In this document: positions 2,652-50,233 of the stretch, in pieces
How the letters are laid out: every line of letters starts with the position of its first letter
How positions within the stretch are numbered: position 1 is the first letter of the stretch
The notes under the pieces: generated by a model
Told to the model about the DNA's origin: nothing
Databases searched by the model: none
What the model saw: only the letters and a program-made list of their open reading frames with translations
Translations under genes and position numbers: made by a program
Source of the DNA: an uncultured Candidatus Saccharibacteria bacterium
GTDB taxonomy: Bacteria; Patescibacteriota; Minisyncoccia; Phycocordibacterales; Zambryskibacteraceae
Length of the DNA stretch: 64,000 nt
Assembly: GCA_964446535.1 (NCBI GenBank)
Contig: CAYUOR010000002.1
Coordinates: forward strand, 43,372-107,371
Reading direction: 5' to 3'

Positions 2652-4181
2652 ATGTCCGTAAAACTTGCTTTATTGCTTGCATTGCTTGCCGCGTCGGCCG
2701 GTATCGGCTTCGGCTATTTCTTGCGCATTTTAATCTCCTTGGGCCGCAAGGGCTCTATGGAGCTCGACATAAAACAAATGGAGCTTGCCTCAAAGGAAGA
2801 GGCTCAACGCATTTTAGAGGTAGCGGAAACTCGTAGCAAAGAGATTCTAGAGAGGGCTCAAAGAGAATTTAGAGAACGCGAAGACAGAACCAAAAAGATC
2901 GAAGACAGACTGGTTAAAAAAGAGGAAGTTTTAGACAAACGCCAGTCGGATTTAGAACAGGAAGCCCTAAATGCCAAGAAAAAAGCCGCAGAATTAGCGG
3001 AGTTAAAAGTAAAAATAGAACAACTTGTAAAAGAACGCGAACATGAACTCGCGAAGGTGGCAGGATTGTCTCGGGTGGAAGCCAAGAAGGAACTCATGAA
3101 ACTAGTGGAAAAGGAAGCCGAAGAGGATATTCTCATTAGGACCAAAAAACTAGAAGCCGAAAGTAACGAGCGTTTGGAAAATCGTGCCAAGGAAATTCTC
3201 GCCACCGCCATCCAGAGACTCGCCGTCTCGACGGCAAGCAATTTAATGGGTACAACCATTACCCTACCCTCAGACGAGATAAAGGGAAAGATTATCGGTA
3301 AAGAAGGCAGGAATATTAAGGCCTTCGAACGGGCAACTGGCGTTGAAGTAATAGTTGATGACACGCCAAACTCTATCACCCTCTCTTCTTTTGACCCGGT
3401 TCGTCGAGCCATGGCCCGCTTGGCACTAGAAAATCTAATATCAGACGGACGAATTCAGCCTGCAAAAATTGAAGAATTTGTTGAAAAAGCCGACGAAGAA
3501 ATAAATAAAATTATTAAAGAAAAAGGAGAACAGGCAGCCATCGATTGCGGAGTCTACAACCTGGATCCGAAACTTATATCTCTACTTGGACGCCTGCACT
3601 TTCGCACGAGTTACGGTCAGAATGTTTTGGACCACTCTATTGAAATGGCGCACATTGCGGGCATCATAGCCAAGGAACTTGGCGTCGATGTCGCCACGGC
3701 CAAAGCCGGAGCTCTCCTACACGACATAGGCAAGGCGCTTGACCATGAGGTGGCCGGTACACACGTTGAAATCGGTAGAAAAATTTTGGACAAGTTCAAC
3801 GTGCCTAAGGCAGTAATCCAGGCCATGCAGTCACATCACGAAGAATATCCATACGAGACCATAGAATCGGTTATTGTTCAGACCGCGGACACTATTTCCG
3901 CCGGAAGACCAGGTGCTCGTCGCGATACGGCCGAACGCTATCTTAAGCGCCTTGAAGAACTTGAGGCGATAGCTCTTTCCTTCGAAGGAGTCGAGAAAGC
4001 CTATGCCCTATCAGCCGGGCGTGAAATTCGAGTTTTTGTTTTCCCCGACAAAGTTTCAGATCTCGAGGCCCAAAAGCTTGCAAGAAATATTGCCACAAGA
4101 ATCGAAAGTGAGCTTAAATATCCGGGAGAAATCAGGGTGAATGTCATAAGAGAGACCCGCTCCATAGAATTTGCTCGCTAA
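2652..4181 (+). CDS. rny: Ribonuclease Y
   Basis: N-terminal TM helix, coiled-coil, KH domain (GKEGRNIKAFERATG) and HD domain (LLHDIGK). Confidence 0.9.
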   Translation: MSVKLALLLALLAASAGIGFGYFLRILISLGRKGSMELDIKQMELASKEEAQRILEVAETRSKEILERAQREFREREDRTKKIEDRLVKKEEVLDKRQSDLEQEALNAKKKAAELAELKVKIEQLVKEREHELAKVAGLSRVEAKKELMKLVEKEAEEDILIRTKKLEAESNERLENRAKEILATAIQRLAVSTASNLMGTTITLPSDEIKGKIIGKEGRNIKAFERATGVEVIVDDTPNSITLSSFDPVRRAMARLALENLISDGRIQPAKIEEFVEKADEEINKIIKEKGEQAAIDCGVYNLDPKLISLLGRLHFRTSYGQNVLDHSIEMAHIAGIIAKELGVDVATAKAGALLHDIGKALDHEVAGTHVEIGRKILDKFNVPKAVIQAMQSHHEEYPYETIESVIVQTADTISAGRPGARRDTAERYLKRLEELEAIALSFEGVEKAYALSAGREIRVFVFPDKVSDLEAQKLARNIATRIESELKYPGEIRVNVIRETRSIEFAR

Positions 4182-4285
4182 TCGTCCATACGGGCGACCC
4201 GTAGCGCGCCTTGGCTGGTTATTATATAATTCTTGGCGAGTCCAAGGGTAGGTTATAAGTAAATTATTAGGTAAATTAGAGACTA

Positions 4286-6109: not shown

Positions 6110-6184
6110 TGGTGCCCCCAGCAGGAATCGAACCCACATCACCTGTTCCGAAGACAGGCACTTTATCCATTAAGCTATGGGGGC
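6110..6184 (-). tRNA. tRNA-Arg (anticodon TCG)
   Basis: cloverleaf on the minus strand with anticodon stem CCTGT/ACAGG and loop CTTCGGA. The T-loop TTCGATT and a 3' CCA are encoded. The T-stem contains G-U pairs. Confidence 0.6.
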
Positions 6185-6212
6185 TAAAGTAATGTTACAA
6201 GGGATTTTCGAG

Positions 6213-6284
6213 TGCGACTAGGGAGAATCGAACTCCCATCTCGTCCTTGGCAAGGACGCATTCTACCACTAAACCATAGTCGCA
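6213..6284 (-). tRNA. tRNA-Gly (anticodon GCC)
   Basis: D-arm GTTTAGTGGTAGAAT, anticodon loop TTGCCAA, T-loop TTCGATT, acceptor GCGACTA/TAGTCGC. Confidence 0.7.
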
Positions 6285-6354
6285 GGTGAGAAAGATAATA
6301 ACGTATTAGGAGAAAAAAATCGAGATTTTGAAATGACTTTATCGCATGCTAGGA

Positions 6355-6380
6355 TAGACGCTTACGGGCTGTACGAGTAC
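6355..6380 (+). repeat. tRNA acceptor-stem minihelix repeat, copy 1 (CGGGCTG-TACGAGTACAT-CAGCCCGA)
   Basis: the 7-bp stem is identical to the acceptor stems of the downstream tRNA-Pro genes, and the 11-nt loop is near-identical to copy 2. Confidence 0.4.
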
Positions 6381-6391
6381 ATCAGCCCGAT

Positions 6392-6416
6392 CACTCAGAA
6401 TAAAAAGTTATGCCAG
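6392..6416. other. Perfect palindrome AAAAGTTATGC-CA-GCATAACTTTT (possible bidirectional terminator or protein site)
   Basis: 11-bp inverted arms with A-run/T-run flanks, located between the minihelix and tRNA-Pro. Confidence 0.4.
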
Positions 6417-6427
6417 CATAACTTTTG

Positions 6428-6498
6428 TCCTTCGTTACGGGCTGTAGTACAGCGGTAGTATACACGCTTCGGGAGTGTGAGACCCGAGTTCGATTCTC
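6428..6498 (+). tRNA. tRNA-Pro (anticodon CGG)
   Basis: acceptor CGGGCTG/CAGCCCG, anticodon stem CACGC/GTGTG, loop TTCGGGA, T-arm CCGAG-TTCGATT-CTCGG. Confidence 0.75.
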
Positions 6499-6522
6499 GG
6501 CAGCCCGATGCCAAGTTTGGAA

Positions 6523-6593
6523 AAAATCTAGTCGGGCCGTAGTATATCGGTAGTATGCATGCTTTGGGAGCATGAGGGCCGAGTTCGATTCTC
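6523..6593 (+). tRNA. tRNA-Pro (anticodon TGG)
   Basis: acceptor CGGGCCG/CGGCCCG, anticodon stem CATGC/GCATG, loop TTTGGGA. Confidence 0.8.
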
Positions 6594-6605
6594 GGCGGCC
6601 CGAAA

Positions 6606-6631
6606 GAAAAAATGTACGGGCTGTATGAATA
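6606..6631 (+). repeat. tRNA acceptor-stem minihelix repeat, copy 2 (CGGGCTG-TATGAATACAT-CAGCCCGA)
   Basis: same stem as copy 1 and as the tRNA-Pro acceptor stems. Confidence 0.4.
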
Positions 6632-6679
6632 CATCAGCCCGAGCGTTCGGAATGAATATCAAAGCTCGCTTTGCTATTA

Positions 6680-6750
6680 TTCCTCACTACGGGCTGTAGT
6701 ATAACGGTAGTATCTGCCCATGGGGTGGGTAAGGCCCGGGTTCAATTCCC
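6680..6750 (+). tRNA. tRNA-Pro (anticodon GGG)
   Basis: acceptor CGGGCTG/CAGCCCG, anticodon stem TGCCC/GGGTA, loop ATGGGGT, T-arm CCGGG-TTCAATT-CCCGG. Confidence 0.7.
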
Positions 6751-6755
6751 GGCAG

Positions 6756-6826
6756 CCCGAAAGAAGCGGGATTAGTTTAGTGGCAAAACGACAGTTTTCC
6801 AAACTGTAGTTGGGAGTTCGATTCTC
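6756..6826 (+). tRNA. tRNA-Gly (anticodon TCC)
   Basis: acceptor GCGGGAT/ATCCCGC, anticodon stem ACAGT/ACTGT, loop TTTCCAA, T-loop TTCGATT. Confidence 0.8.
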
Positions 6827-6846
6827 CCATCCCGCACTTTTTCCCT

Positions 6847-7257
6847 CTAAATAACGATATTTTCAAGTATTTCCGCTCGTGCGATTCTATTTTTCTCATC
6901 AATTTTGACCGTAATAAGATCAAGCTGCCATTCTGAGTCAATGTTTTTTTCTAAGAGATAACTTTGTATAGCTCGGTGAAGGCGCCTTATTTTCCAGTGG
7001 TGCATGTTATCTTCCGGCCTAAATTCACCCCTTCTAGTTTCATCAGAAACTTTTTTGTTTAAAGTTACACGAGAAACACTTTTTACTTCAATAAAGTGAA
7101 TAATTCCCTGTTTTTCAGCAACAATGTCTATTTCACCCCACTTTCTTAGGTAATTTCTATCTTTTATCTTAAATTCAAGTTTTTCTAAAAATCTACAAGC
7201 AATATTTTCTCCTATATCACCTAATTTACGTTTACTGGTTCTTTTATCTTCTTCCAT
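6847..7257 (-). CDS. yraN: UPF0102/YraN family endonuclease
   Basis: YraN signature GE.IA..FL...G..I...N........GEIDIVA. Confidence 0.8.
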   Translation of the reverse strand: MEEDKRTSKRKLGDIGENIACRFLEKLEFKIKDRNYLRKWGEIDIVAEKQGIIHFIEVKSVSRVTLNKKVSDETRRGEFRPEDNMHHWKIRRLHRAIQSYLLEKNIDSEWQLDLITVKIDEKNRIARAEILENIVI

Positions 7258-7418
7258 AACTATAAAAGTTTCATATGAAACATATAAGTCAAAAAATCAT
7301 CAAAATTAAGGACATTTGACCTATTATACATAAAAATATGTCTCTTAATACACATCATCCACACAATTATCCACAATTTCAAGCATTTTTTGAAATTCTG
7401 TATTAAGGACAAACAAAA

Positions 7419-7447
7419 ACCACCGCGGGTTTATGCGGTGGCTTGCC
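7419..7447 (-). terminator. Intrinsic terminator on minus strand (hairpin CCACCGCATAAACCCGCGGTGG followed by TTTTTGTTTG)
   Basis: 6-bp GC stem followed by a U-run on the minus strand, about 280 nt downstream of the xth stop. Confidence 0.5.
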
Positions 7448-7727
7448 ACGCCTGTATCGTGGCAGAAGGTAATTCCAGGGCAGTGTGTTGGGTGAACGGA
7501 CGCATTCAACCCAAAAAATAAAGTTGGCGGTTCGTCATCCTCACGCCGACACCAGAGACCAGAATTATCTTCCGGCAATTGGAACGGCCTTCCAAGAACC
7601 AATGCCAGGCTTCAAACCGCAATTAGAGAATAGCAGATGTCCACCAAGCGTCTAATGACATTCTACCCGATAAAGGACAAATATTAAATAAGAAAATGTG
7701 GATATCTTTGTCCTTTATTTTATGGCT

Positions 7728-8498
7728 CTATTTAAGGGTTAATTTTACTGGACAGTGATCAGAACCAAAAATATTGTCTAATATTTCTATTGATTTAATC
7801 TTCTCTAACATTTCCGGAGAAGCGAAAAAATAGTCTATTCTCCAACCGACATTTCGTTCCCTAGCAAATGTTTTCATATCCCAGTATGTATAAGCTTCTT
7901 TTTTGTCAGGAAAAAAGTGACGAAAAACATCCACCCAGCCATAAGAGACAAGTTTATCCACCCAGGCTCTCTCTATTGGTAGAAAGCCTACGTGAGCTTC
8001 ATTTTCCTTGGGCCTTGCTAGGTCTATGGGTTTATGAGCCACATTAACATCTCCACAAAACACGATATTTGGTTGTTTCTCGTGTAACTTATTTACAAAA
8101 TCTAGGAAATAGTCATAGAAATCAAGCTTATATCTAAGACGCTCAGGTGGACCACCTCCATTAGGAAAATACACGTTAATAAGTATAAAATCCTTATATT
8201 CAGCCACAATAAGACGCCCCTCCTCATCTAATTTCTTTATTTTCATGTCACGTGAAACGTTTTTTGGCTCTTCTTTAGAATAAATAGCCACCCCGCTATA
8301 ACCCTTCTTCTGGCTAGGGTAGTGGAAATATGAAAAATAACCCCCAGGTTTGCGCAACTCGTCTGTTAGTTGTTCCGGCAAAGCCTTTGTTTCCTGGAGG
8401 CAGAGAATGTCTGGTTTCATGTCAAACACTTTTTGCATATAGCCGTTTCTGTGTGTCGCCCGCAGCCCATTCACATTCCAGGTGATAAGAGTTTTCAT
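7728..8498 (-). CDS. xth: Exodeoxyribonuclease III (AP endonuclease family 1)
   Basis: MKTLITWNVNGLRA...LCLQETK and the C-terminal SDHCPV motif. Confidence 0.9.
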   Translation of the reverse strand: MKTLITWNVNGLRATHRNGYMQKVFDMKPDILCLQETKALPEQLTDELRKPGGYFSYFHYPSQKKGYSGVAIYSKEEPKNVSRDMKIKKLDEEGRLIVAEYKDFILINVYFPNGGGPPERLRYKLDFYDYFLDFVNKLHEKQPNIVFCGDVNVAHKPIDLARPKENEAHVGFLPIERAWVDKLVSYGWVDVFRHFFPDKKEAYTYWDMKTFARERNVGWRIDYFFASPEMLEKIKSIEILDNIFGSDHCPVKLTLK

Positions 8499-8567: not shown

Positions 8568-9725
8568 ATGTATAAGCTATCTCTTAAATTGACTAAAATT
8601 ACGAACATAAGTAGAGAGGGAGTTCTTAAATTAGTCTTTACGGTGTTTGTTGCGTTTTTCCTTGTGCCGTCTATAAGTTTCGCCGACTTTGTGTGGAGCT
8701 CGATTGGCTCTAACAGTGGTCAGGGATTCGGAGAGTGCGCCAACCCACAGGTAACTTGTATTTTTAGCGGCTCTCCTTACGAGACCGCGAACTGTACTAT
8801 CAGTGATGAATTATCGGGAACTTCTTATGAGAATTATGTTTGCAACGAAGCAAATCTGGGACAGAATTTGACGGAAAGACAAGGAACGTCTTGCGTTAAT
8901 CCGCCAAACACCGGCACCTGGAGTGAAGATTATTATGAATGTCAGTGGTCTGGTCCCATCACACTCACCACATCCATAAGTTCCGGACAGGGAACAGTCT
9001 CTGCACCAGGAATAAGCTGTCCAGGTGATTGTAGCGAAAACTTTAGTTACGGTACCTGGGTAACAATTGTTGCGACACCAGATTCTGCCAATGGATACAG
9101 CTTCGGTTCTTGGGCGGGGGCGTGCCTGGGGCAGACTTCCATTTGTTCTGTACAGATGAACGGAAGCAGGAGTACCAGTGTAAGTTTTAACGCCCCTGCG
9201 GCGCCGACAGTATCTCTAAACGCAAGTCCAAACCCGGTTTCTTATAACAGCGCATCAAATCTTTCCTGGTCTTCATCTAATGCCACAAGCTGTACTGCGT
9301 CGGGCGCCTGGTCAGGTTCCAAGGCGCTTAGCGGAACACAATCAACAGGCAATTTAATTTCCGATCAAACCTACACTCTTACATGTAACGGCGCGGGCGG
9401 CTCGGCATCGCGCTCGGTAACTGTGGGGGTCCTTAGTGGCGGCATGTCCGTTTCCTGCTCCGCCAACCCGACAACAGCTCTCCTCGGGCAAAACATAACT
9501 TGGACAGCCACAGTCTCGGGCGGTGTCCCGCCATACACTTATTCTTGGGCAGGTACCGACATACCTACGACACCCGCGCCGTCAACCAATCCTTATACGA
9601 GAAGTTACAGCACTATCGGGCAGAAGAACGCTACGGTAACCGTTACGGGAGGAAATTCTGCACAGGCAACTTGTCCGCCGGCCGTGGTGCAAATAAACTT
9701 CAATCCAGACTTTGAAGAATTTTAA
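8568..9725 (+). CDS. Secreted Ser/Thr/Gly-rich surface protein with divergent InlB-B-repeat-like domain and C-terminal PKD-like domain (paralog A)
   Basis: signal peptide; GISCPGDC...GY.F..W.G.C domain; C-terminal ~95 aa shared with the downstream paralog, ending in NFNPDFEEF. Confidence 0.6.
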   Translation: MYKLSLKLTKITNISREGVLKLVFTVFVAFFLVPSISFADFVWSSIGSNSGQGFGECANPQVTCIFSGSPYETANCTISDELSGTSYENYVCNEANLGQNLTERQGTSCVNPPNTGTWSEDYYECQWSGPITLTTSISSGQGTVSAPGISCPGDCSENFSYGTWVTIVATPDSANGYSFGSWAGACLGQTSICSVQMNGSRSTSVSFNAPAAPTVSLNASPNPVSYNSASNLSWSSSNATSCTASGAWSGSKALSGTQSTGNLISDQTYTLTCNGAGGSASRSVTVGVLSGGMSVSCSANPTTALLGQNITWTATVSGGVPPYTYSWAGTDIPTTPAPSTNPYTRSYSTIGQKNATVTVTGGNSAQATCPPAVVQINFNPDFEEF

Positions 9726-9727
9726 AT

Positions 9728-12088
9728 ATGAAGTATAAGATTATTACACTCTTAATATTTCTCTCATCAGCAAGTTTTGCTTACGCCGGCACTTGGTCGG
9801 CGCCGATTAACCACCCGGGGATTCCTCCGCCGAATCAATTCTGCGACCAGCCGCCGCTTTATCCGACAAGTCAGATGCCAACGGGGAGTGCTTGTTCGCC
9901 GGACGGGAGCACATATACTTTCGGTTCTATGTCAATGTGTGATTTGGGTGGGGGAGAATTTTCCACGTATCAAAACGCGAACAATGTTCAACAGCAGACA
10001 TGTAACCCCTCTGGCAATACACCGCCGACCGCTAACGCTGGTATAGACAGAACGATAACTCAGCCGACATCTTCGGCAACCCCAAGTGGCGCTTCGGCGA
10101 GTGATCCGGGTGGCTCTGTTGCTTCTACAGTCTGGTCGTTTGTGAGCGGCCCCGGGTCAACGCCGACAATATCAAATAGCACAACCCTGACCCCCACCTT
10201 TAACGGCATGGCTACCGCCGGAGTTTACACTTTTCGTCTTCGGGTAACTGACAACCTGGGACTTTTTACCGACGACACCATGACCGTTACGGTTAACGTG
10301 GCAACGCCGCAGTGCAACGATGGCATAGATAATGATGGTGACACCAGAATCGATATTGGTGACTGGGGTTGCCACTCAGATAACAACGCAACAAATGCTG
10401 CGTCGTACGTTTCCACTGACAATGACGAGTCAAACCCATATTGCAATGTTCCTGGTTGGGGCGCGGAGGAACTTGTCTACGATGGCGATCTTTCGGGTCC
10501 TGGAGGTGTAGGTTGGTGTAACAGCACTTCTTACGGCGCCTGTCCATCAAATCTTGGCGGTGGGCCAACATCGGTTAGCGCTAAAGGTAGCGCGGCGGCG
10601 TGTTGCAGGGGACAAGATTACTTGGGTTGGATTAGACAATGTACTGGAAGTCCGCCCGCGCCGATTGATGGGGCCTGTGGTTCGGAGGCCGGCAACACTT
10701 TACCTGCGGAACCGACCGGCGGGCCATCAGCCTGCGCCTCTGGAACTTTCAACGCATCTACACCAGCAGATACCTCCACAAACTGGAATTGGACGTGTAA
10801 CGGTATAAATGGGGGTTCTTCTGTACAGTGTACGGCTACAAAATCTTCTGGCGGAGCTCCGCCGGCGTGTCCATACGGAATTCAATCAACGCAGACAACA
10901 TCAGCCAAGGCCTTTGATGCACCGGACACATATCCAGACAACATGTGGGGTAACTGGTCACCAGTATGTGGAACTAGTTGGGATGCGCCGTTTATGAATG
11001 ATGCCGCTATTTTTGCTAGAAATGCTGGAGTTCCAGAAAGTCCAGATGTAGATGCTATGGAGGTAGCGTTTGGCTGGTTTCCACAGCCGGGCGCACCAGA
11101 GGAGTATGATACAACAACTGGCAATACCACTCGTCTTAGTTGGGTTTTCGACCAATGGCAAGGTAGCCAAGCAGATCTTATTCCGTGCGTCGGTCAAATT
11201 ACGGTTAACGTCTGCAATGCCCCGCCGAATTACACTTTAACTACAGCAGTTTCTCCTGGTGGTTCGGGCACGGTTAGCGCCACAGGGATAAGTTGCCCAG
11301 GTGACTGTACCGAGTCTTACGTTGTGAACACCATGGTAACAGTGGTGGCCACACCAGCAGTCGGGTACGCCTTTAGTAGTTGGTCGGGGGCTTGCGCCGG
11401 ACAGCCGTCGAGCTGTTCGTTGCAAATGGATGGTAACAAAAATACAACAGCGAACTTTGTCCTGTCTCCAACTTTTGACTACAGCATTTCGAATTCAGGA
11501 ACTTCTAATGTCACAAAGACTGCCGGTGATGCCTACACAACGAATACGATTACAAGAACGCTTACCTCTGGCACCACGGAAGCCGTGACAATTACGGCGA
11601 CAGGCATGCCATCAGGTGTTTCTGTAAGCTACGATGGCAACCGCACCTGCTCACCGAACCCGAGCTGCGTATCTACGATAACCTTCACCGTGAACTCTTC
11701 CACGGCGGCAGGGACCTATAACATTACTGTGACGAGTGCGGGTGACGGCACACCCGGGCCGAGATCAACAAACTTCAACCTTGTTGTTACGCAACCATCT
11801 GGACTCTCTGTCAGCTGTTCTGCCAATCCGACAAGCGCCATGATAGGGGACAACATTACCTGGACAGCAACACCTTCGGGCGGTACTTCGCCCTACACGT
11901 ATTCTTGGTCTGGCACCGATATTCCGACAAGCCCGGCGCCAACAACGAATCCATACATTAAAAAATATGAGACTATAGGAACGAAGACCGCGACGGTTAC
12001 GGTAACAGATGCGGGTTCGTTTCAGGCAACCTGTAACCCAGCTGCCGTGACCCAGATCAATTTCGACCCGTCCTTCGAGGAATTTTAA
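9728..12088 (+). CDS. Large secreted Ser/Thr/Gly-rich surface protein (786 aa) with Cys-rich Asp-repeat (DNDGD) motif, InlB-B-repeat-like and PKD-like domains (paralog B)
   Basis: signal peptide MKYKIITLLIFLSSASFAYA; CNDGIDNDGDTRIDIGDWGC calcium/metal-binding-like motif; shared domains with 8568-9725; ends in NFDPSFEEF. Confidence 0.6.
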   Translation: MKYKIITLLIFLSSASFAYAGTWSAPINHPGIPPPNQFCDQPPLYPTSQMPTGSACSPDGSTYTFGSMSMCDLGGGEFSTYQNANNVQQQTCNPSGNTPPTANAGIDRTITQPTSSATPSGASASDPGGSVASTVWSFVSGPGSTPTISNSTTLTPTFNGMATAGVYTFRLRVTDNLGLFTDDTMTVTVNVATPQCNDGIDNDGDTRIDIGDWGCHSDNNATNAASYVSTDNDESNPYCNVPGWGAEELVYDGDLSGPGGVGWCNSTSYGACPSNLGGGPTSVSAKGSAAACCRGQDYLGWIRQCTGSPPAPIDGACGSEAGNTLPAEPTGGPSACASGTFNASTPADTSTNWNWTCNGINGGSSVQCTATKSSGGAPPACPYGIQSTQTTSAKAFDAPDTYPDNMWGNWSPVCGTSWDAPFMNDAAIFARNAGVPESPDVDAMEVAFGWFPQPGAPEEYDTTTGNTTRLSWVFDQWQGSQADLIPCVGQITVNVCNAPPNYTLTTAVSPGGSGTVSATGISCPGDCTESYVVNTMVTVVATPAVGYAFSSWSGACAGQPSSCSLQMDGNKNTTANFVLSPTFDYSISNSGTSNVTKTAGDAYTTNTITRTLTSGTTEAVTITATGMPSGVSVSYDGNRTCSPNPSCVSTITFTVNSSTAAGTYNITVTSAGDGTPGPRSTNFNLVVTQPSGLSVSCSANPTSAMIGDNITWTATPSGGTSPYTYSWSGTDIPTSPAPTTNPYIKKYETIGTKTATVTVTDAGSFQATCNPAAVTQINFDPSFEEF

Positions 12089-12115: not shown

Positions 12116-12640
12116 ATGGAACCGAATCAAATGCCACAGACGCCATCGCAAGGGCCTGACAAGAAAACGCTCATTGCCGTTGTCGTTGTTTTAGTAATAC
12201 TTGCCGCAGGATACCTCTTGGCTACGAAGTATGACAAAAGAATGGGAATAAAGGATGGTGACAAGGCGAGCGAAACCATTCCACTAGAGGTTAGTGTTAC
12301 CCACACGGAACGAGTCAACGGCGTCTTACCCCCTCCGCCCGGCTTTCCTTCCGATATCCCGGTTGAAAAAACGGACATTAGAGAGAGCGCCACAACACAA
12401 TATCCGACCCTTGACGCCAAACAGCTAAGTTTAAATTATCAAACCTCAAAGACGGTTGCCCAGAAATTGACGGAATACAGAGATTATATGAAAAAAGCCG
12501 GCTACAGCGTGAGTGAAAGTAGCGCTTCTGCTCCCGTAAAAGCACTCTTTGGCACCAAAGATGATGCCAATCTCACTGTAGTTATCAGCAACGCAGGCAG
12601 TGGAAAAACTTTGGTTCAGGTCGCCTATCTTCTTAAGTAG
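12116..12640 (+). CDS. Membrane-anchored hypothetical protein
   Basis: N-terminal TM helix LIAVVVVLVILAAGYLLA with a proline-rich linker; no recognisable domain. Confidence 0.4.
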   Translation: MEPNQMPQTPSQGPDKKTLIAVVVVLVILAAGYLLATKYDKRMGIKDGDKASETIPLEVSVTHTERVNGVLPPPPGFPSDIPVEKTDIRESATTQYPTLDAKQLSLNYQTSKTVAQKLTEYRDYMKKAGYSVSESSASAPVKALFGTKDDANLTVVISNAGSGKTLVQVAYLLK

Positions 12641-12698: not shown

Positions 12699-14450
12699 AT
12701 GCATATTGATGAGGCGAAACTCGAGGGTTTCATGATCGACTCTGGACTTGTTTCCAGAAAGGATATCGATGCGGCCAAAGTTGAGGCAAAGAAAAAAAAT
12801 ACAAGTATCGGTGAAATTCTTGTAAACCGTGGGGCTCTTACCGAGGATGACCTTCGCCGAATGCAGGCCTATATTCTCGGCATCCCATTTGTGGATTTAA
12901 AAAACCAGAAACTTGATTTCTCGGTTCTCTCGCTCGTTCCGGAACCCATAGCAAGAAACCACAACATTGTTGCGTTCAAGAAAGTAAATGACAGTCTTGA
13001 GGTTGCGATGTTAGACACCGACGATCTTACCGCAATTGACTTTGTTAAGAAAAAGGTTGGCTTAAGAGTTCTGCCCCGCTTGACTGACGCCGAAAGTATG
13101 AAGTGGGCACTGCTTTCATATCAAAAAACTCTTAAGGCCGAGTTCGGAGATATCATCCAGAAAGAAGCAAGCTCTCTTAAAACGGTTAGTGAGGGCGATG
13201 AAGGGGATATAGCCGAAGGGGATCTTAAGAAACTGGCTACCGATATACCGGTTGTTCGTATTGTGGACACCCTTCTCAAACATGCAATTATCCAAGACGC
13301 CTCCGATATACACATAGAGCCAGAGGAGGACAAAGTTCTTGTTCGCTACAGAGTAGACGGTATTTTGCGCGACGCCATGATTCTGCCGAAAAATACTGCT
13401 TCCGGCATAACGGCGCGCATTAAGGTTCTCGCCAACCTTAAACTTGATGAGAAGCGTCTGCCGCAAGACGGGCGATTTAAGATTGATGTAGGCGGAGAGA
13501 AGGTTTCTTTTCGAGTCTCGACTCTGCCGGTCTACTACGGGGAAAAAACTGTGATGCGACTTCTGCGCGAGAGTGTTTCCGGCTTTACTCTTGAGAGTTT
13601 GGGTTTTCACAACAAGGGCCTGGAAGATTTACACCACTCGCTCAAAGCAACGACCGGCATGATCCTTGCCACCGGCCCGACGGGTTCCGGCAAAACCACC
13701 ACCCTCTACACCATGCTTGATATCGTCAATACCCCAGACGTTAATATTTCTACGATAGAAGATCCGGTTGAATATCAGATGACGAGAATTAATCAGACCC
13801 AAGTCCGTCCAGAAATTGGCCTCACTTTTGCCAACGGCCTTAGAACTCTCGTGCGCCAGGACCCAGACATTATTATGGTCGGAGAAATTCGTGACAACGA
13901 GACGGCCGCCCTCGCCATCAACGCCTCTCTAACCGGACACCTCGTTCTCTCAACTCTCCACACGAATTCCGCCGCTGGTGCGATACCGCGCCTTCTTGAT
14001 ATGAAAGTTGAACCATTCCTTTTAGTTTCTACGCTCAACGTGGTCATTGCCCAACGCCTGATTCGTCGTCTTGCCGCGTCAAAGACCAAGTATTTTTTAA
14101 ACAAAGATGAACTTGACTCACTCTCTAAAATTGTCTCTCTTGACCGCATGCTCGGATTTCTAAGGGAAGGTAAGATTATTGATAAAAAGGATGGATTCGA
14201 AAAGGTGCCCTTCTGGAAACCGAATCCCGGCAAAGATTCCGAGGATGGCTACTCAAGCCGTATTGGAATTCATGAAGTCTTACCTGTTACCGCGACTATT
14301 AAAAACCTGATTATGAAAGGGGCGACTGATCAAGAAATCGAAGAGCAGGCCAAGTCCGAAGGTATGATGACTATGGTTGAAGACGGTATTTTTAAGGCAG
14401 CGCAGGGTATTACTACTATAGAAGAAGTTCTAAGGGTCGTTTCAGAATAA
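12699..14450 (+). CDS. pilB: Type IV pilus assembly ATPase PilB (GspE family)
   Basis: T2SSE N-terminal domain; Walker A LATGPTGSGKTTTLY; Asp/His boxes. Confidence 0.9.
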   Translation: MHIDEAKLEGFMIDSGLVSRKDIDAAKVEAKKKNTSIGEILVNRGALTEDDLRRMQAYILGIPFVDLKNQKLDFSVLSLVPEPIARNHNIVAFKKVNDSLEVAMLDTDDLTAIDFVKKKVGLRVLPRLTDAESMKWALLSYQKTLKAEFGDIIQKEASSLKTVSEGDEGDIAEGDLKKLATDIPVVRIVDTLLKHAIIQDASDIHIEPEEDKVLVRYRVDGILRDAMILPKNTASGITARIKVLANLKLDEKRLPQDGRFKIDVGGEKVSFRVSTLPVYYGEKTVMRLLRESVSGFTLESLGFHNKGLEDLHHSLKATTGMILATGPTGSGKTTTLYTMLDIVNTPDVNISTIEDPVEYQMTRINQTQVRPEIGLTFANGLRTLVRQDPDIIMVGEIRDNETAALAINASLTGHLVLSTLHTNSAAGAIPRLLDMKVEPFLLVSTLNVVIAQRLIRRLAASKTKYFLNKDELDSLSKIVSLDRMLGFLREGKIIDKKDGFEKVPFWKPNPGKDSEDGYSSRIGIHEVLPVTATIKNLIMKGATDQEIEEQAKSEGMMTMVEDGIFKAAQGITTIEEVLRVVSE

Positions 14451-14461: not shown

Positions 14462-15673
14462 ATGGCTCTCTATAAATACAAAGCAAAAGATAAGGAAGGA
14501 AAAATCTACGAGCGTGCGGCTGACGTTAAAAATCGTGCTGAAATCTACAATATTATTCGCGAGGAAGGGGGCACCCTTGTTTCTATAGAGGAGGCAAAAA
14601 GTATTTTTTCCAAAGGGCTTATCTGGAATTTTTTTAGCGGTATAAAAACTCACCAGAAAATAATTTTTGCAAAAAACTTAGGTTTAATGATGGACGCTGG
14701 ATTGCCTGTTACTCGGGCACTTTCTGTTATGGCGAAGCAAGCTAAGGGCAAAGCCATGAAAAAACTTCTCTCTGATCTAGAAGAAGACATAAGTCATGGT
14801 CAAACTCTTTCGGAATCTCTGCACAAGCATCCACGAATTTTTTCACCCCTTTTCGTATCTATGGTTAAGGCGGGCGAAGAATCCGGCAATGTCTCTGGCG
14901 CTCTGGCTATTGTTGCGAATCAAATGGAGAAGACATATCTATTGGCGAAAAAAGTGCGAGGCGCCATGATTTATCCGGCCGTTATCATTGTCGTGATGAT
15001 TGCACTTGCGATACTGCTTCTCATATATATGGTTCCCACTCTTACGGCAACCTTTGAAGGTCTGGGAGTCGAACTTCCGCTACCGACAAGAATCCTCATT
15101 GCCTCAAGTAACTTTATGGTCGATAACACGTTTCTCGTTCTTTCTGTTCTCGCGCTCTTTGTAGGCTTATCTATAATGTTTTTCAGAAGCAAACTCGGCA
15201 GGAGCATTACGGACGTCGTATTCCTTCGCCTACCGGCAATTGGCGAGATGGTTAGAGAGTTTGAATCTGCGAGAAGCGCCCGCACCCTTTCATCCCTTCT
15301 TGGTGCCGGGGTGGAGATTATCGTTGCTCTCGACGTTACCATAGATGTCTTGCAAAACCATCTTTACAAGGAAGCGCTCGGCAGCGCTCGTAGTGCGGTG
15401 GAAAAAGGTGAGCCGATGTCGGAAGTTTTTATCAAGCACGAACACCTTTACCCGCGCTTTGTCGGAGAGATGGTGGCAGTAGGTGAGGAGACGGGCAAAA
15501 TTTCAGAGATGTTGAAAGGAGTTGCCGATTACTACGAAGAAGAGGTAGACCAAAAGACCAAAAATCTTTCAACAATTATTGAGCCAGTACTCATGATTAT
15601 TATCGGTATCGGGGTTGGAGTTTTCGCTATCTCGATGCTCGCCCCAACGTATTCTTTGGTCGATTATATTTAA
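14462..15673 (+). CDS. pilC: Type IV pilus platform protein PilC (GspF family)
   Basis: two T2SSF repeats and three TM segments; adjacent to pilB. Confidence 0.85.
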   Translation: MALYKYKAKDKEGKIYERAADVKNRAEIYNIIREEGGTLVSIEEAKSIFSKGLIWNFFSGIKTHQKIIFAKNLGLMMDAGLPVTRALSVMAKQAKGKAMKKLLSDLEEDISHGQTLSESLHKHPRIFSPLFVSMVKAGEESGNVSGALAIVANQMEKTYLLAKKVRGAMIYPAVIIVVMIALAILLLIYMVPTLTATFEGLGVELPLPTRILIASSNFMVDNTFLVLSVLALFVGLSIMFFRSKLGRSITDVVFLRLPAIGEMVREFESARSARTLSSLLGAGVEIIVALDVTIDVLQNHLYKEALGSARSAVEKGEPMSEVFIKHEHLYPRFVGEMVAVGEETGKISEMLKGVADYYEEEVDQKTKNLSTIIEPVLMIIIGIGVGVFAISMLAPTYSLVDYI

Positions 15674-15678: not shown

Positions 15679-16149
15679 ATGAATTCAAAATCTATTAGTC
15701 GAGGTTTTACATTGTTAGAACTTCTGCTCGTTATAGTTATTGTTACTGTAGTGGCTGCTCTCGGTGTGTTTTCCTTTACAAAACTTAATTCTTCTCAGGC
15801 ATTGGAAAAAAGTGCCGACCTGGTAGTTTCTACTCTTAATGAGGCCAGAGCACTTACTCTCTCTTCAAAAGGAGATACGCAGTACGGCGTTTACATTGAG
15901 CCTTCGCAGATAGTTTTATTTTCTGGTAATTCATACTCCTCCTCAGATCCGGCCAACAGAGTAAACACCCTACATTCACTAGTGGGTATTCAAAATATTA
16001 ATCTTTCTGGCGGTGGTACAAGCGTAATTTTTGAACGTCTAACGGGTGGCACTAATCAAGCGGGCACGCTGGAGATTTTCTTAAGATCTTCTCCGGGGAC
16101 GTATCGCACCATTACCATTACGGGAACAGGGATAGTAGAATTAGACTAA
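15679..16149 (+). CDS. Prepilin-type N-terminal cleavage/methylation domain pilin (GspH/FimT-like)
   Basis: N-terminal RGFTLLELLLVIVIV class III signal. Confidence 0.75.
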   Translation: MNSKSISRGFTLLELLLVIVIVTVVAALGVFSFTKLNSSQALEKSADLVVSTLNEARALTLSSKGDTQYGVYIEPSQIVLFSGNSYSSSDPANRVNTLHSLVGIQNINLSGGGTSVIFERLTGGTNQAGTLEIFLRSSPGTYRTITITGTGIVELD

Positions 16150-16156: not shown

Positions 16157-16648
16157 ATGAAAAACTTTCCGAACCATTCTACGCGCGGATTGACTCTGGT
16201 GGAGGTGCTTGTTGCCGCTTCTATAATTTTGGTTTTTCTTCTGGCGCTTTTCGGCGCCCACAATCTCTATTTGAAGGCCGCATTTTCTAGCGGCGAGGTT
16301 ATTAAGGCAACCACCTTAGCAGAAGAGAGCTTAGAGGTAGTTAGATTTTTAAGAAACGGCTCTTGGGATAGAAACATTGCACCCCTTTCTCTCGACACCG
16401 ATTATTTTTTAACTTTTAACTCTGGCATTTGGGCAACAAGTACCACTAATGCTTTTTTAGATAATCTCTTTGAAAGAAAAATTAGATTATCGGCCGTTTA
16501 TCGTGACGTCAATGGAGATATTGTTTCCTCAGGAGGAACCCTGGATCCTGATACCAGACTAGTAGTCTCAACTGTTTCATGGCAGCTAAGAAATACGACG
16601 ACCACTCGATCCGTATCCACGTACTTAACAGACCTGTATGAAAACTAA
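16157..16648 (+). CDS. Minor pilin-like protein (atypical prepilin N-terminus)
   Basis: RGLTLVEVLVAASIILVFLLALF N-terminal helix; lies in the pilin gene cluster. Confidence 0.6.
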   Translation: MKNFPNHSTRGLTLVEVLVAASIILVFLLALFGAHNLYLKAAFSSGEVIKATTLAEESLEVVRFLRNGSWDRNIAPLSLDTDYFLTFNSGIWATSTTNAFLDNLFERKIRLSAVYRDVNGDIVSSGGTLDPDTRLVVSTVSWQLRNTTTTRSVSTYLTDLYEN

Positions 16649-17150
16649 AATATTGAAAAACAAACGCGGGTTCACTTTAATCGAGATGCTGATTTACATA
16701 TTCATTTTAATATTAATGCTTGGGGTTATTATGAACATAACCATTTCGGTAATTAATTCCGGAAAAATTGTAAAAGCTCTACGAAATATTGAAAACTCAA
16801 CTCTGACGAGTTTCGAGCGTATTTCAAGGGAGTTACGCCAAGCCGAAAGTGTGAATCTCTCTTCGAGCGTCTTGAGTGTTCATCCTGGCCATCTTGTACT
16901 TGTGGGCACTGACGACTTTGGTGCACCACGCACCGTCGAATTTCGTCTATCTGGCAATGTTTTAATGCTTAGAGAAAATGGTATTGATGTGGGCGCCTTA
17001 ACCGAGCCTAACACAAGGGTAACTGAACTTATTTTTCGACGCTTCGTTAACTCCAATTCGGAGGGAATCAGAACAGAAATCACGCTTGAGAGTGGTACCA
17101 GTACTAGTTATCGTTCAAGCAAATTTTATTACTCCGCTATCATAAGATAA
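16638..17150 (+). CDS. Minor pilin (prepilin-type N-terminal domain)
   Basis: KRGFTLIEMLIYIFILILMLGVI. Confidence 0.7.
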   Translation: MKTKILKNKRGFTLIEMLIYIFILILMLGVIMNITISVINSGKIVKALRNIENSTLTSFERISRELRQAESVNLSSSVLSVHPGHLVLVGTDDFGAPRTVEFRLSGNVLMLRENGIDVGALTEPNTRVTELIFRRFVNSNSEGIRTEITLESGTSTSYRSSKFYYSAIIR

Positions 17151-17152: not shown

Positions 17153-18883
17153 ATGAAAAATCAAAATTCTATTTCATATAATCGGGGACAGGCGATGATG
17201 GTTGCCACCATACTTTTTCTTGTAGTTTCACTCACCATTATTTTTGGCATTAGTGCACCAATTTTGAAACAGCAAAAAATAACTTCGCAACACGTACTTT
17301 CTCGTCAAAGTTATTTTCTAGCAGAAGCCGGGCTCGAAGATGTTCTCTTTAGACTTAGAACAGGAAAACCCGTCGGTGCAAACGAGACTATCAGCCTTAA
17401 CGGATCTAGCGTGACCATCGTCACGACTGATGTTTTTGACGGCAAAGAAGTGGTGGCCACAGGTAATGCTGGCGAGGCCGTGCGCAAGGTTAGGGCAGGG
17501 GTCACAATGGGTGTTGGAGCAGTGTTCGGCTACGGTGTGCAAGTTGGAGCTGGCGGGCTTACTATGGGCAATAACTCCGTCATTAACGGCAGCGTCTATT
17601 CAAATGGCAATATAACCGGTAGTGGCAATATTACGGGCACTGCTTTTGCCGCCAATTCTTCCGCTCTTAGTGCTGACCAAACAAATGATTCCGGAACTCC
17701 GGCGTATGATATAACTTTTGGCAACGCAAATGGTACCCAGGATTTTGCTCAAAGTTTTCAAGTTAGCGCAACTGGTGTTGTTAATAAAGTTGACCTATAC
17801 ATAAAAAAGGTTAGCACCCCCGGTAATTTAACTGTAAGAATTGTTTCAAACTCCGGATCAAATCCAAGCTCAACCACTCTAGCATCAGGCACACTTTCTG
17901 CTTCACTAGTTTCTACTAACTACGGCTGGGTCAGTGTGCCCCTATCTTCAAATCCGGAATTAACCGTTGGCACTACCTACTGGATAGTCATTGATGGGGT
18001 CACCAACTCTTCTCGCTATTACATTATTGGGGCAAATGATAATGGATATGGAAACGGTACAGGTAAAATTGGACAACATTCTGGCACTTGGAATAACACG
18101 ACCCCTTCCGGACTTGATGGTTTTTTTAAACTATATATGGGTGGTCTGACCGGACTTATTAGTGGTATTAACATTGGCTCTGGTGGTGTCGGCAATGCTT
18201 ATGCGCACACGGTAAATAATTCTAATATTGCTGGCACCAATTATTGCCAAACCGGAACCGGCAATAATAAACCATGCAACACATCTCTACCCGACCCCAC
18301 GCAGGTAGCCATGCCTATTTCCGAGCAGAATATTTTAGATTGGAAAGCAGATGCAGAAGCTGGTGGCACTATTTCCGGAAATTATACTTTGAACGACAAT
18401 ACTGGCACCTTGGGACCAAAGAAAATCACCGGCAATCTAACAGTTCAGAATAATGCAGACCTTACATTAACAGGAACAGTTTGGGTAATGGGAAATGTAT
18501 TGATTGATAACAATGCGACAGTCAGACTTGATTCAAGTTACGGCACGTCTGATGGAGTCATGGTTGCTGACGGCACAATTACAATCCAGAACAATGCCAC
18601 TTTTGCTGGCTCGGGCTCTCCCGGGAGCTACCTCATGACACTCTCCACCTCTAATTCAACGAGCGCTATTACGCTTAACAACAACGGCGGTTCAGTAATC
18701 CTCTATGCCGCCAACGGCACTGTTAATTTAAGCAATAATGGAAGTGCCAAGTCTTTAAATGGAAAGTTTATAAACCTGAACAATAATGCCGTGGTGATTT
18801 ATGATAGTGGGCTTGCAAATTCAAACTTCGTCAACGGTCCATCCGGGGGTTGGGATATCTCAAGTTGGCAAGAGACCGAATAA
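17153..18883 (+). CDS. Large PilX-N-domain pilus-associated protein with G/N/T-rich beta-helix-like repeats (putative tip adhesin)
   Basis: N-terminus RGQAMMVATILFLVVSLTIIFGI resembles the PilX N-terminal domain; the remainder is rich in NGxxTG repeats. Confidence 0.5.
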   Translation: MKNQNSISYNRGQAMMVATILFLVVSLTIIFGISAPILKQQKITSQHVLSRQSYFLAEAGLEDVLFRLRTGKPVGANETISLNGSSVTIVTTDVFDGKEVVATGNAGEAVRKVRAGVTMGVGAVFGYGVQVGAGGLTMGNNSVINGSVYSNGNITGSGNITGTAFAANSSALSADQTNDSGTPAYDITFGNANGTQDFAQSFQVSATGVVNKVDLYIKKVSTPGNLTVRIVSNSGSNPSSTTLASGTLSASLVSTNYGWVSVPLSSNPELTVGTTYWIVIDGVTNSSRYYIIGANDNGYGNGTGKIGQHSGTWNNTTPSGLDGFFKLYMGGLTGLISGINIGSGGVGNAYAHTVNNSNIAGTNYCQTGTGNNKPCNTSLPDPTQVAMPISEQNILDWKADAEAGGTISGNYTLNDNTGTLGPKKITGNLTVQNNADLTLTGTVWVMGNVLIDNNATVRLDSSYGTSDGVMVADGTITIQNNATFAGSGSPGSYLMTLSTSNSTSAITLNNNGGSVILYAANGTVNLSNNGSAKSLNGKFINLNNNAVVIYDSGLANSNFVNGPSGGWDISSWQETE

Positions 18884-21063: not shown

Positions 21064-21966
21064 TTAATAACTTCTGGAGTTAATTAATCTGCCGAACCTG
21101 TCATATAGTTCTATTGTTTCGTATTCATTTGCCCACATTTCCCAACCCCTACCCAGAAAAACCCTCCATGTCTTACCGTAGAAATCTTCATCATTCACGT
21201 GTGAAGCAATACAGCCCGCGTAGCTGAAACGCTCTTTGATAAAGGCGACACAAGCGCCTGAAAGCGGCTTACCATTTACACAATTACGACAAACGGAACC
21301 ATCGGCCTCCCTGGTGTTAAACTCCGGTGTCTGACAGCTCGGCAGACGCTCTATGAATTTCCGACATTCTACATCAAGATATTCGAGCCCCCGCTCTTGA
21401 GACGGGCGCGGGCAGCTCCTACTTAGGGCGGGGGTAAATTTGTATTCATCCGTATTTTCAAGGTAGCCACTACAAATATTTTCTTTAAAACTTACAATTT
21501 TGTAAGGAGCTTCGACAGTAATAGCACCCGTTGTAATTATTGCTCTCTCGCCACGCTCAAGAATAATATCAAGCATTAAATTGTTGTTGCTTGGTGAGAG
21601 GAACGGGGTGCCGCGTCCGATGTAGGCAATATCGGGGGCAAAGTAGCGCAACTGGCCACCGATGTTGTATGGACGCTTGTCCTTGGCGTTTTTCAGATAC
21701 CAGCCCGTAATATTTATCGGATCTCGTCCGCGGTTATTTATTATTATGTATTCTTCAAATGACTGATAAGATCTTGCCGCGTTACCAGTACTTATAGACA
21801 CCTCAACCTCGCTTGACACCTCTCTCGAGACAACATTCTCTTTTCTTTCTGATACAGAGGTCTTTTCTCGCGATTGCGTGCTCGTTCTGCCTAGAGAAGT
21901 AATAATTAAAGCAATAATTACCACGACTAGTATCACCACGCCCTCGGTCGTGCTGCTTTTTTTCAT
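21064..21966 (-). CDS. Membrane-anchored protein with lamin-tail-domain-like segment and Cys-rich C-terminal region (hypothetical)
   Basis: N-terminal TM helix; IINNRGRDPINITGWYL resembles the LTD motif; 10 Cys in the C-terminal half. Confidence 0.5.
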   Translation of the reverse strand: MKKSSTTEGVVILVVVIIALIITSLGRTSTQSREKTSVSERKENVVSREVSSEVEVSISTGNAARSYQSFEEYIIINNRGRDPINITGWYLKNAKDKRPYNIGGQLRYFAPDIAYIGRGTPFLSPSNNNLMLDIILERGERAIITTGAITVEAPYKIVSFKENICSGYLENTDEYKFTPALSRSCPRPSQERGLEYLDVECRKFIERLPSCQTPEFNTREADGSVCRNCVNGKPLSGACVAFIKERFSYAGCIASHVNDEDFYGKTWRVFLGRGWEMWANEYETIELYDRFGRLINSRSY

Positions 21967-23681: not shown

Positions 23682-24151
23682 CGGAAATTTATACCGACGG
23701 CGCTTCTCGCGGCAATCCAGGACCTGGGGGCTGGGGGGTAGTCGTTCTCTCTGAGAGAGAAGTAAGAGAGCTTGGCGGTGGAGAGCCCCGCACGACCAAC
23801 AATAAAATGGAGTTAACCGCCGCAATTCGGGCTTTAGAAGCCTGTTCCGATAAAAAGCTGACCATTTACACCGATTCAGAGTATGTTGCTAAAGGTATGA
23901 CCGAGTGGATATTCAATTGGCAGAAAAAAGGTTGGAAAACAGCAAACAAAAAACCAGTTTTAAACCAAGATTTATGGCAAAAGCTCTCTTCTCTTGCCGA
24001 AGACAGAGAAATTTCTTGGAAATATGTGCCGGCGCATAGCGGTATTCGCCTTAACGAACGAGCCGACGAAATTGCCACCGGCTTTGCCGACGCAGTTTCG
24101 GGTGCCGAGAAGCCAAAGCTTTTCCATGGACCGAAAAACGCGTACCGATAG
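23678..24151 (+). CDS. rnhA: Ribonuclease HI
   Basis: TDGASRGNPGPGGWG...ELTAAIRALE...TDSEYV catalytic DEDD residues. Confidence 0.9.
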   Translation: MTEIYTDGASRGNPGPGGWGVVVLSEREVRELGGGEPRTTNNKMELTAAIRALEACSDKKLTIYTDSEYVAKGMTEWIFNWQKKGWKTANKKPVLNQDLWQKLSSLAEDREISWKYVPAHSGIRLNERADEIATGFADAVSGAEKPKLFHGPKNAYR

Positions 24152-35242: not shown

Positions 35243-35728
35243 ATGGCCATTTCTCGTGCTAAGAAAGAAGAAGTATTGGAAAAACTAAGGCAAGCGTTTA
35301 AAAACGCCAAGTCTTTAGTTTTTATTAACTTCAAAGGACTCTCGGTCGGCGATACAGCCAACATGAGAAAAACTCTCAAATCCGAGGGCATTTCTTATAT
35401 GGTGGCAAAGAAAACTCTTACGCACCGCGCGCTTACCGAGGCTCGATTTGACGGCGAAGCGCCGACACTAGACGGAGAACTGGCGCTGGCTTGGGGTAGC
35501 GATGATACGGCCCCTGCTCGCGGCGTCCACTCATTCAAGGAAAAATTTCCTGAAAGCTTAAAAATTCTTGGCGGAGTTTTTCAAGGTCGCTTTATGACGG
35601 GCGCCGAGATGACAGAAATTGCCATGATTCCGAGCCTTGATGTTCTTAGGGGTAAGTTTGTCAACATTATAAATTCTCCAATACAGCGTTTTGTAATTGG
35701 GCTTAGCGAAATTAGTAAAAAGAAATAA
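35243..35728 (+). CDS. rplJ: 50S ribosomal protein L10
   Basis: L10 N-terminal domain [29 protein letters not shown]. Confidence 0.8.
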
Positions 35729-36125: not shown

Positions 36126-36138
36126 GTAATATAGGCGC

Positions 36139-50220: not shown

Positions 50221-50233
50221 TTGAGCGAAGAAG

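Follow-up and report, generated by a model that had tools for sequence, protein, structure and literature searches.

Adjacent secreted proteins with a conserved C-terminal FEEF tail lead a type IV pilus gene string in a candidate phyla radiation bacterium, with a candidate docking partner encoded beside them

We analyzed a 64,000-nucleotide stretch of DNA (positions 43,372 to 107,371 of contig CAYUOR010000002.1; hereafter the window) from an uncultured, ultra-small bacterium of the candidate phyla radiation (CPR; Zambryskibacteria type), in which two consecutive open reading frames (ORFs), genes A and B, encode secreted proteins that end in the seven-residue tail [N/D]-P-x-F-E-E-F. Both ORFs lie on the plus strand exactly where an earlier note on this DNA had placed them, and only 2 nt separate the stop codon of A from the start of B (Table 1). 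Protein A ends in ...VVQINFNPDFEEF and protein B in ...VTQINFDPSFEEF, each directly before its stop codon, and a six-frame check of the window revealed no ORF with a FEEF-type end besides these two. As the earlier note had stated, the proteins are rich in Ser, Thr, Gly and Asn (together 44.7% of A and 43.0% of B) and very acidic, with computed isoelectric points of 4.39 and 4.05, respectively; its description of them as "giant" was wrong for proteins of this length. The numbers of Cys residues are even (14 in A and 28 in B). Inspection of the sequences revealed a Sec-type signal peptide at the start of each protein. The N-terminal parts of A and B are unrelated, whereas the C-terminal ~290 residues share 46% identity (BLASTP, E = 5e-61), so the proposed paralogy holds for the C-terminal halves. 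Over the last 97 residues the identity is 72%; this domain is clearly shared, although calling it near-identical was somewhat generous.

The divergent InlB B-repeat that had been suspected in both proteins was confirmed, because each scores above the gathering cut-off of 23.6 bits of the Pfam family PF18998 (Flg_new_2). In B, a K319L-like PKD domain near the N-terminus, unmentioned in the earlier note, precedes the Cys-bounded DNDGD motif. This motif is indeed present, as one repeat of the NF033662 type; at 26.4 bits it stays under the whole-protein cut-off of 41, which is set for several repeats, and B is not a member of that family. No Pfam model reached its threshold in the C-terminal domain of either protein: the best scores were 18.7 bits for SprB (cut-off 28), 17.7 for PKD_4 (27) and 15.4 for PKD (23.5) in B, and 20.1 bits for the SprB repeat (28) in A. 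However, residues 690-786 of B were modelled by AlphaFold with a predicted local distance difference test score (pLDDT) of 90.7, and Foldseek ranked PKD domains from the collagenase ColG highest for this model (TM score 0.65-0.80, E = 2e-4 to 4e-4). Because these are its best matches in the PDB, the term "PKD-like" is correct at the level of the predicted fold, and at that level only, since the sequence profiles remain below threshold. The last strand of the model ends at N778, and the tail, residues 780-786, lies outside the fold with a mean pLDDT of 61, compared with 86-96 in the ten-residue blocks of the domain. The tail is thus predicted to be a flexible appendage and not a part of the sandwich. 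A segment that is invariant yet apparently disordered in the model is typical of a linear binding motif.

Table 1. Positions in the window of genes A and B, their domains and tails, and the genes that follow them.
Feature	Position (nt)	Strand	Basis or remark
Gene A, secreted acidic immunoglobulin (Ig)-domain protein, 385 amino acids (aa), end NPDFEEF	8568..9725	+	ORF; orthologues in loci L002, L041 and L043
A, Sec-type signal peptide, residues 1-39, ...FFLVPSISFA before DF	8568..8684	+	sequence inspection; site in L002 orthologue is ...PSISYA before DF
A, divergent InlB B-repeat, residues 139-208 (GISCPGDC...W.GAC)	8982..9191	+	PF18998, 26.1 bits
A, Ig-like domain, ~residues 210-288 (...SSSNATSC...TYTLTC...)	9195..9431	+	46% identity with P0034 repeats of this type; without Pfam match
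A, C-terminal PKD-fold domain, residues 289-378	9432..9701	+	72% identical to that of B; fold from the model of B
A, free C-terminal tail N-P-D-F-E-E-F	9702..9722	+	sequence
Gene B, secreted acidic Ig-domain protein, 786 aa, end DPSFEEF	9728..12088	+	ORF
B, Sec-type signal peptide, residues 1-20, MKYKIITLLIFLSSASFAYA before GT (...SFAYA before GT)	9728..9787	+	sequence inspection
B, K319L-like PKD domain, residues 104-189	10037..10294	+	PF22352, 59.3 bits, cut-off 27; PDB KIAA0319L, E 2.8e-10
B, single acidic double-disulfide repeat (CNDGIDNDGD...), residues 195-219	10310..10384	+	NCBIfam NF033662, E 4.2e-6
B, divergent InlB B-repeat, residues 505-578 (GISCPGDC...W.GAC)	11240..11461	+	PF18998, 44.7 bits
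B, conserved Ig-like stalk domain, ~residues 585-689 (FDYSISNSG...TFNLVV)	11480..11794	+	block in the 27-protein alignment; also in P0001
B, C-terminal PKD-fold domain, residues 690-779	11795..12064	+	AlphaFold and Foldseek
B, free C-terminal tail D-P-S-F-E-E-F	12065..12085	+	outside the last strand of the model; invariant in relatives
TM174, bitopic membrane protein, one N-terminal transmembrane helix and beta-rich ectodomain	12116..12640	+	candidate tail receptor
PilB/GspE-type assembly ATPase	12699..14450	+	Pfam T2SSE, E 1.6e-123
PilC/GspF platform protein	14462..15673	+	Pfam T2SSF, E 5.9e-57
Three pilins with N-terminal methylation motifs	15679-16149, 16157-16648, 16638-17150	+	Pfam N_methyl in each
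576-aa protein with pilin-like hydrophobic N-terminus, last of the conserved string	17153..18883	+	syntenic in relatives

A homologue search with the 97-aa C-terminal module returned four proteins, all of which end in F[ND]PxFEEF. One genome from each of 185,579 species was scanned with the back-translated pattern F-[ND]-P-x-F-E-E-F-stop, and 38 stretches matched. About 20 genomes, all from a single CPR clade, account for 23 of them, and in every case the tail closes the same PKD-like domain at the extreme C-terminus of a member of the same protein family. The other 15 were set aside as chance matches, since each is either a read-through at TGG or a short ORF (11-122 aa) from an unrelated phylum; three matches on viral contigs, with TGG codons in place of stops, were treated likewise. 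By our own estimate, the pattern carries about 37 bits, from which about ten chance matches would be expected in 1.2e12 positions, near the 15 observed. The genomes with the tail are labelled Zambryskibacteria, Parcubacteria, Minisyncoccia or, for assemblies from third-party annotation, "Saccharibacteria". Their PilB proteins are mostly 80-87% identical to that of the window, and most of these genomes therefore belong to one clade.

Because the pattern scan fixes the tail by construction, a second, tail-blind search was performed, in which metagenome contigs were queried with the protein TM174, encoded directly after B. This search found 26 loci, 23 of which include upstream sequence, and in all 23 the gene directly upstream of TM174 ends in P-x-[F/L]-E-E-F, the sole variants being DPDLEEF (L055) and FFPHFEEF (L061 and L062). 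Once redundancy was removed, 18 sequences of 95 aa or more remained; none of them deviates from F at position -8, P at -6, E at -3 and -2, or F at -1, and their 100-aa modules have a mean pairwise identity of 71% and a minimum of 47%. An alignment of 27 family proteins contains 15 invariant columns, five of them within the last six residues. The tail is therefore conserved far beyond chance, and the concern in the earlier note that relatives might lack it was not borne out by the homologues, the pattern scan or the tail-blind loci. The codons vary freely within the tail: all four Pro codons are used, GAA (13) and GAG (12) are about equally frequent at position -3, and TTT is mixed with TTC, while the sequence 3' of the stop codon shows no conservation. 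Because synonymous codons vary, selection acts on the protein sequence of the tail. The tail is not a proteome-wide tag: each genome has it once or twice, and nearly every copy belongs to this gene family. Several assemblies break or shift frame within the tandem tail genes (L007 at 3794-3847, L014 at 4031-4195, and also L011 and L028); examples are a 17-aa remnant ending in VIFDPQFEEF, a gap of Ns after which the tail recurs, and a pair of contig ends whose tails are identical. Assembly is apparently disturbed by the repetition of the C-terminal module, and the copy number per genome may therefore be underestimated.

An all-against-all BLASTP comparison of 27 full-length family members showed how conservation is distributed along the protein. 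Similarity was detectable in 326 of 351 pairs for the last 100 aa and in 291 of 351 pairs for the preceding 200 aa, which comprise the B-repeat and an Ig-like domain, compared with 38 of 325 pairs for the N-terminal heads. Pfam detected Flg_new_2 in 18 of the 27 members (best E = 2e-37), and PKD or CARDB domains in some of the heads. The family thus consists of a variable head, a constant stalk of about 300 aa (InlB-type B-repeat, Ig-like domain and PKD-fold domain) and the tail. Such a layout is expected if the C-terminus is attached and the N-terminus exposed.

A profile of the C-terminal domain, searched against 1.84 billion representative sequences, gave 11,102 matches, which belong to the SprB/PKD-like repeat family and many of which carry tens of repeats. 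Among the best 150 of these 11,102 matches, only P0001 and P0034 have the FEEF end. P0034 is a 1047-aa protein from a distant CPR genome, in which the ribosomal proteins L2, L4 and S7 are 61%, 50% and 58% identical to those of the window, respectively. It ends in ...TSVTIGLTPHFEEF (...TPHFEEF), and here the tail follows a different Ig-like terminal domain, while its several internal PKD-like repeats are without the tail. Because P0034 carries the tail on another domain, the tail marks the end of the protein and not the PKD-like repeat. A homologue search with the C-terminal 89 aa of P0034 found nothing, and the evidence for modularity of the tail therefore consists of one protein. The gene for P0034 sits in a ribosomal-protein operon beside an IS200-type transposase. 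As a separate observation, this L2/S19 junction looks like a recurrent insertion site: it holds P0034 and the IS200-type Y1 transposase in L040 (10001-13911), and in the window the corresponding interval between rplB (L2) and rpsS (S19) contains extra genes, including one for an MscS-like channel (35243-37514).

The link to the pilus locus proved stronger than the adjacency noted earlier, as A and B head the same conserved string as the pilus genes. In about 45 loci the gene order is kept: Xth and YraN, both on the other strand, precede the one or two tail proteins, after which come TM174, PilB, PilC, three pilins, the 576-aa pilin-like protein, TIM and PGK. PilB, PilC and prepilin-type pilins are thus encoded together, as in a type IV pilus/Com-like operon. 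No terminator-like site was found in the intergenic gaps among A, B, TM174 and PilB, and those found within genes occur at the level of shuffled sequences. As the gaps are short and intergenic terminators were not found, we regard the tail proteins as leading this operon. The 576-aa protein has no Pfam or PDB match and is possibly a large minor pilin or a tip protein. A DNA-uptake theme continues downstream in the window, where a lamin-tail-domain protein (21064-21966, minus strand), RecJ (22035-23681) and ComEC (Competence and DUF4131 domains, 23994-25610) are encoded, together with a separate protein of the metallo-beta-lactamase (MBL) fold (26184-27041) and, in between on the opposite strand, an Fe/Mn superoxide dismutase. 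It is speculation that ComEC, the MBL protein and RecJ, all within 12 kb, would fit a DNA-uptake pilus.

The TM174 ectodomain was modelled with a pLDDT of about 90, and its family shares a strongly conserved Pro-rich segment, VNG.LP.PP.FP.DIP.E. No relative of TM174 was found in Pfam, NCBIfam or the PDB; its homologue P0158 bears a precomputed PF27226 label, a model that the Pfam copy used here lacks. All of the fold neighbours are weak (PA1624, DcrB, TiME, PsbP and SciW; best E = 9e-3, TM score ~0.4). PA1624 and DcrB have the Mog1p/PsbP-like (DcrB/DUF1795-like) fold, and Mog1p/PsbP-like proteins are often associated with membrane-anchored complexes (PMC7716261). TM174 adjoins the tail gene in about 12 of 20 species genomes. 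It stays beside the tail gene where PilC and the pilins are absent (L010 and L017) and where the whole pilus block is absent (L033).

A function of the invariant C-terminus in anchoring or recognition, the core of the earlier proposal, is the reading that we retain as the best one, in the form of a docking peptide instead of a sortase-type signal. According to this model, A and B would be exported via Sec as disulfide-rich acidic surface proteins, each presenting its head on the constant stalk. The flexible seven-residue tail, with its free carboxylate, would then act as a short docking peptide, and a conserved extracytoplasmic partner encoded nearby would capture it non-covalently, the best candidate being the ectodomain of TM174. 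In this way, adhesin heads that can be exchanged would be held at the cell surface, close to the pilus machine. TM174 is preferred as the partner because a tail gene precedes it in 23 of 23 loci and the pair persists without pilus genes, and also because it has a single transmembrane helix, a confidently modelled ectodomain and weak Mog1p/PsbP-like neighbours. Built as it is on sequences and predicted structures, we hold this docking model tentatively, as a possibility that falls somewhat short of an even chance; surface display and adhesion are likewise what we infer for these proteins, and the S-layer-like or host-attachment roles in an episymbiotic lifestyle suggested in the earlier note stand at the same level.

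Several observations weigh against the docking model. In about 8 of 20 species genomes the tail gene runs directly into PilB or TIM and no TM174 adjoins it, although TM174 may lie at another site in these genomes, and the neighbourhood of P0034 contains no pilus gene and no TM174 within 10 kb. The fold match of TM174 is weak, and the protein may simply be a pilus assembly component. Its ectodomain, with isoelectric points of 4.7-8.7 in the family, is not consistently basic and thus offers no evident charge match for the two glutamates of the tail. Moreover, the clade is narrow, and part of the tail invariance reflects shared ancestry. A bolder version of the docking model seems doubtful to us: that P-x-F-E-E-F-COOH is a new short acidic-aromatic, non-hydrophobic anchoring signal of CPR bacteria, read by a TM174 receptor, through which interchangeable and rapidly evolving adhesin heads are plugged in at the base of a type IV pilus/DNA-uptake machine, independently of sortases and specifically in ultra-small episymbionts.

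The main alternative partner is the pilus itself. The docking site of the stalk and tail could be a tip complex of minor pilins or the 576-aa protein, with TM174 being a mere assembly factor; A and B would then be adhesins borne by the pilus, in the role of PilY1/PilC-type tip proteins. In nearly every locus the PilB-PilC-pilin string begins with tail genes, and in L005, L012, L021 and L031 the tail gene leads straight into PilB with no TM174 between them, both of which agree with this explanation. In L014, the two genes are separated by an assembly gap. Non-pilin adhesins encoded in pilin operons are also an established pattern, with PilY1 as the example. However, tail genes persist without pilins (L010, L017 and L033) or without the whole pilus block (L022), P0034 lies far from any pilus gene, and the PilY1 beta-propeller domain (Pfam Neisseria_PilC) was found neither in A and B nor in 25 relatives. 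We consider docking on the pilus unlikely, although it deserves to be weighed. A structural role of the tail is less likely: the tail might pack on the PKD-fold domain or the B-repeat, cap the last strand or protect against exoproteases, and need no partner. It nearly always follows the same PKD-fold domain, and its pLDDT, though low, does not indicate complete disorder, as would suit such a role. Against it stand P0034, with the same tail on a different terminal domain, the restriction of the tail to P0001 and P0034 among the best SprB/PKD-like matches described above, and the five invariant residues, which are many for a simple cap. On balance we find a purely intramolecular function rather improbable.

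A true sorting or processing signal is also less likely than docking. In this case a peptidase or transpeptidase would remove the tail and attach the protein covalently to the wall, a lipid or another protein, constituting a new sortase-like system. In its favour, the tail is invariant, it forms the extreme end of secreted proteins whose passengers vary, and no Pfam or NCBIfam model covers it. However, no hydrophobic or transmembrane segment that could hold the substrate at the membrane, and no basic cluster, follows the motif, as A and B end at ...F[ND]PxFEEF. A regular expression, the only means used for this purpose, was applied to the window and to about 68 related loci and detected no ORF with a sortase-like TLxTC signature, and no enzyme is conserved in the neighbourhood by synteny. 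One or two substrates per genome would be unusual for a dedicated system. NCBIfam provided no sorting-domain model, with zero matches of the C-terminal region at E<=1, and no PDZ, sortase or exosortase protein was found among the roughly 35 of 80 window ORFs scanned against Pfam. We regard such a cleaved signal as quite improbable. Conservation at the nucleic acid level, with the GAG/GAA codons serving as a ribosome-binding site for the downstream gene or as a transcript element, is suggested by the Glu codons of A lying about 8 nt upstream of the ATG of B, yet this Shine-Dalgarno or DNA-level explanation is effectively refuted by the freely varying codons, by distances to the next start that range from 2 nt to more than 100 nt with unconserved downstream sequence, and by the different context of the tail in P0034.

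CPR bacteria (Patescibacteria) rely on contact with other cells. Few of their structures have been shown by experiment to matter for this contact; type IV pili belong to those few, and in Saccharibacteria only (PMC11623550, PMC10633639). The analysis yields a sharp, searchable signature, a neighbouring candidate receptor gene and a modular architecture. If the docking model is true, the tail offers a way to predict which adhesins one groundwater CPR clade possesses, and a peptide tag for pull-downs with recombinant proteins derived from metagenomes. The scope is a narrow, uncultured clade, for which function is deduced from the genes.

Several other features of the window were recorded. Between YraN (6847-7257) and Xth (7728-8498) lies a GC-rich non-coding stretch of about 260 nt on the minus strand (7395-7662), overlapped by a spurious 85-aa ORF (7345-7602). 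It retains 70-80% nucleotide identity in related genomes; a promoter-like TTGTCC...TAGAAT is conserved upstream of it, and at its end stands a hairpin with a U-run that resembles a terminator. RNAalifold, applied to four sequences, gave 47 pairs, of which nine show compensatory double changes, and in L043 a hairpin is inserted within one loop. No Rfam match was found for this stretch at E<=1, and it is a candidate for an unannotated structured RNA. A cluster of six tRNA genes (6110-6837) comprises three tRNA-Pro (CGG, TGG and GGG), two tRNA-Gly and one tRNA-Arg, and ARAGORN identified a tRNA-Ile with the anticodon TAT at 54957-55031 (minus strand). About 1.6 kb at 48840-50430, with ORFs of at most 92 aa, adjoins the transfer-messenger RNA gene (50434-50852, minus strand); no Rfam match to it had an E-value below 0.036, and it resembles none of the fetched loci. 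Near the end of the window, where the GC content drops to 36.5%, a type I restriction-modification HsdM methylase with a fused N-terminal MerR-type helix-turn-helix (61000-62703) is directly followed by a second, divergent ClpP-like protein (62708-63253).

Comparison with known systems places the tail among C-terminal modules of surface proteins. The resemblance to LPXTG and PEP-CTERM signals proposed in the earlier note is that secreted surface proteins with varying passengers finish in a short invariant motif. It fails on the hydrophobic segment, the basic cluster and the NCBIfam model, and the regular expression detected no sortase-like ORF nearby; the FEEF motif, in contrast, is acidic and aromatic, the protein ends there, and a genome has one or two substrates. 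Because nothing follows the motif and no sorting models match, membership in the LPXTG, PEP-CTERM and type IX secretion system (T9SS) C-terminal domain classes was rejected. In particular, there is no LPXTG-like motif, helix or basic tail for a sortase substrate, and no transmembrane helix, Arg-rich cluster or NCBIfam model match for PEP-CTERM/exosortase or GlyGly-CTERM. For the T9SS sorting domain (Por_Secre_tail-type), no NCBIfam or Pfam match was found, and the context is a CPR genome. CPR cells are monoderm; an outer-membrane beta-signal was rejected on this export context and on the lack of a barrel. Isopeptide formation or Asn/Asp-directed cleavage at position -7 is unlikely, the residue being N or D in most sequences but F in L061 and L062 and T in P0034.

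The closest relatives in architecture are the fibrillar SprB-repeat/PKD proteins, including Flg_new_2 proteins of CPR bacteria, archaea and Bacteroidota, which are likewise Sec-exported chains of Ig-like beta-sandwiches and whose SprB repeats share the GG..PY.Y.W motif with the C-terminal domain of A and B. However, the fixed terminal stalk, the tail and the position in a pilus operon are specific to this CPR clade. PilY1/PilC adhesins are similarly Sec-secreted non-pilins encoded with pilus genes, and they have a conserved pilus-facing C-terminus and a variable N-terminus. In contrast, A and B are encoded upstream of PilB and not among the minor pilins, and the tail also occurs away from pilus genes. 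PDZ domains recognize class III C-terminal ligands of the pattern [D/E]-x-hydrophobic-COOH, which -E-E-F-COOH on a flexible tail with a free carboxylate would fit; TM174 has no detectable PDZ relationship, and the analogy is mechanistic only. WxL-domain proteins of monoderms are encoded in clusters with small membrane proteins, and their attachment is presumed to be non-covalent. This arrangement resembles the present one in that variable surface proteins share a conserved C-terminal module and have the gene for a small membrane protein as a neighbour, whereas no sequence or domain relationship to WxL was detected and the module here is a PKD-fold domain with a seven-residue tail in a type IV pilus operon. 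Our literature search found no mention of a bacterial FEEF C-terminal motif or of C-terminal sorting in Patescibacteria. Among the systems compared here, the FEEF tail would be a module by which Ig-type surface proteins are anchored or docked at their C-terminus.

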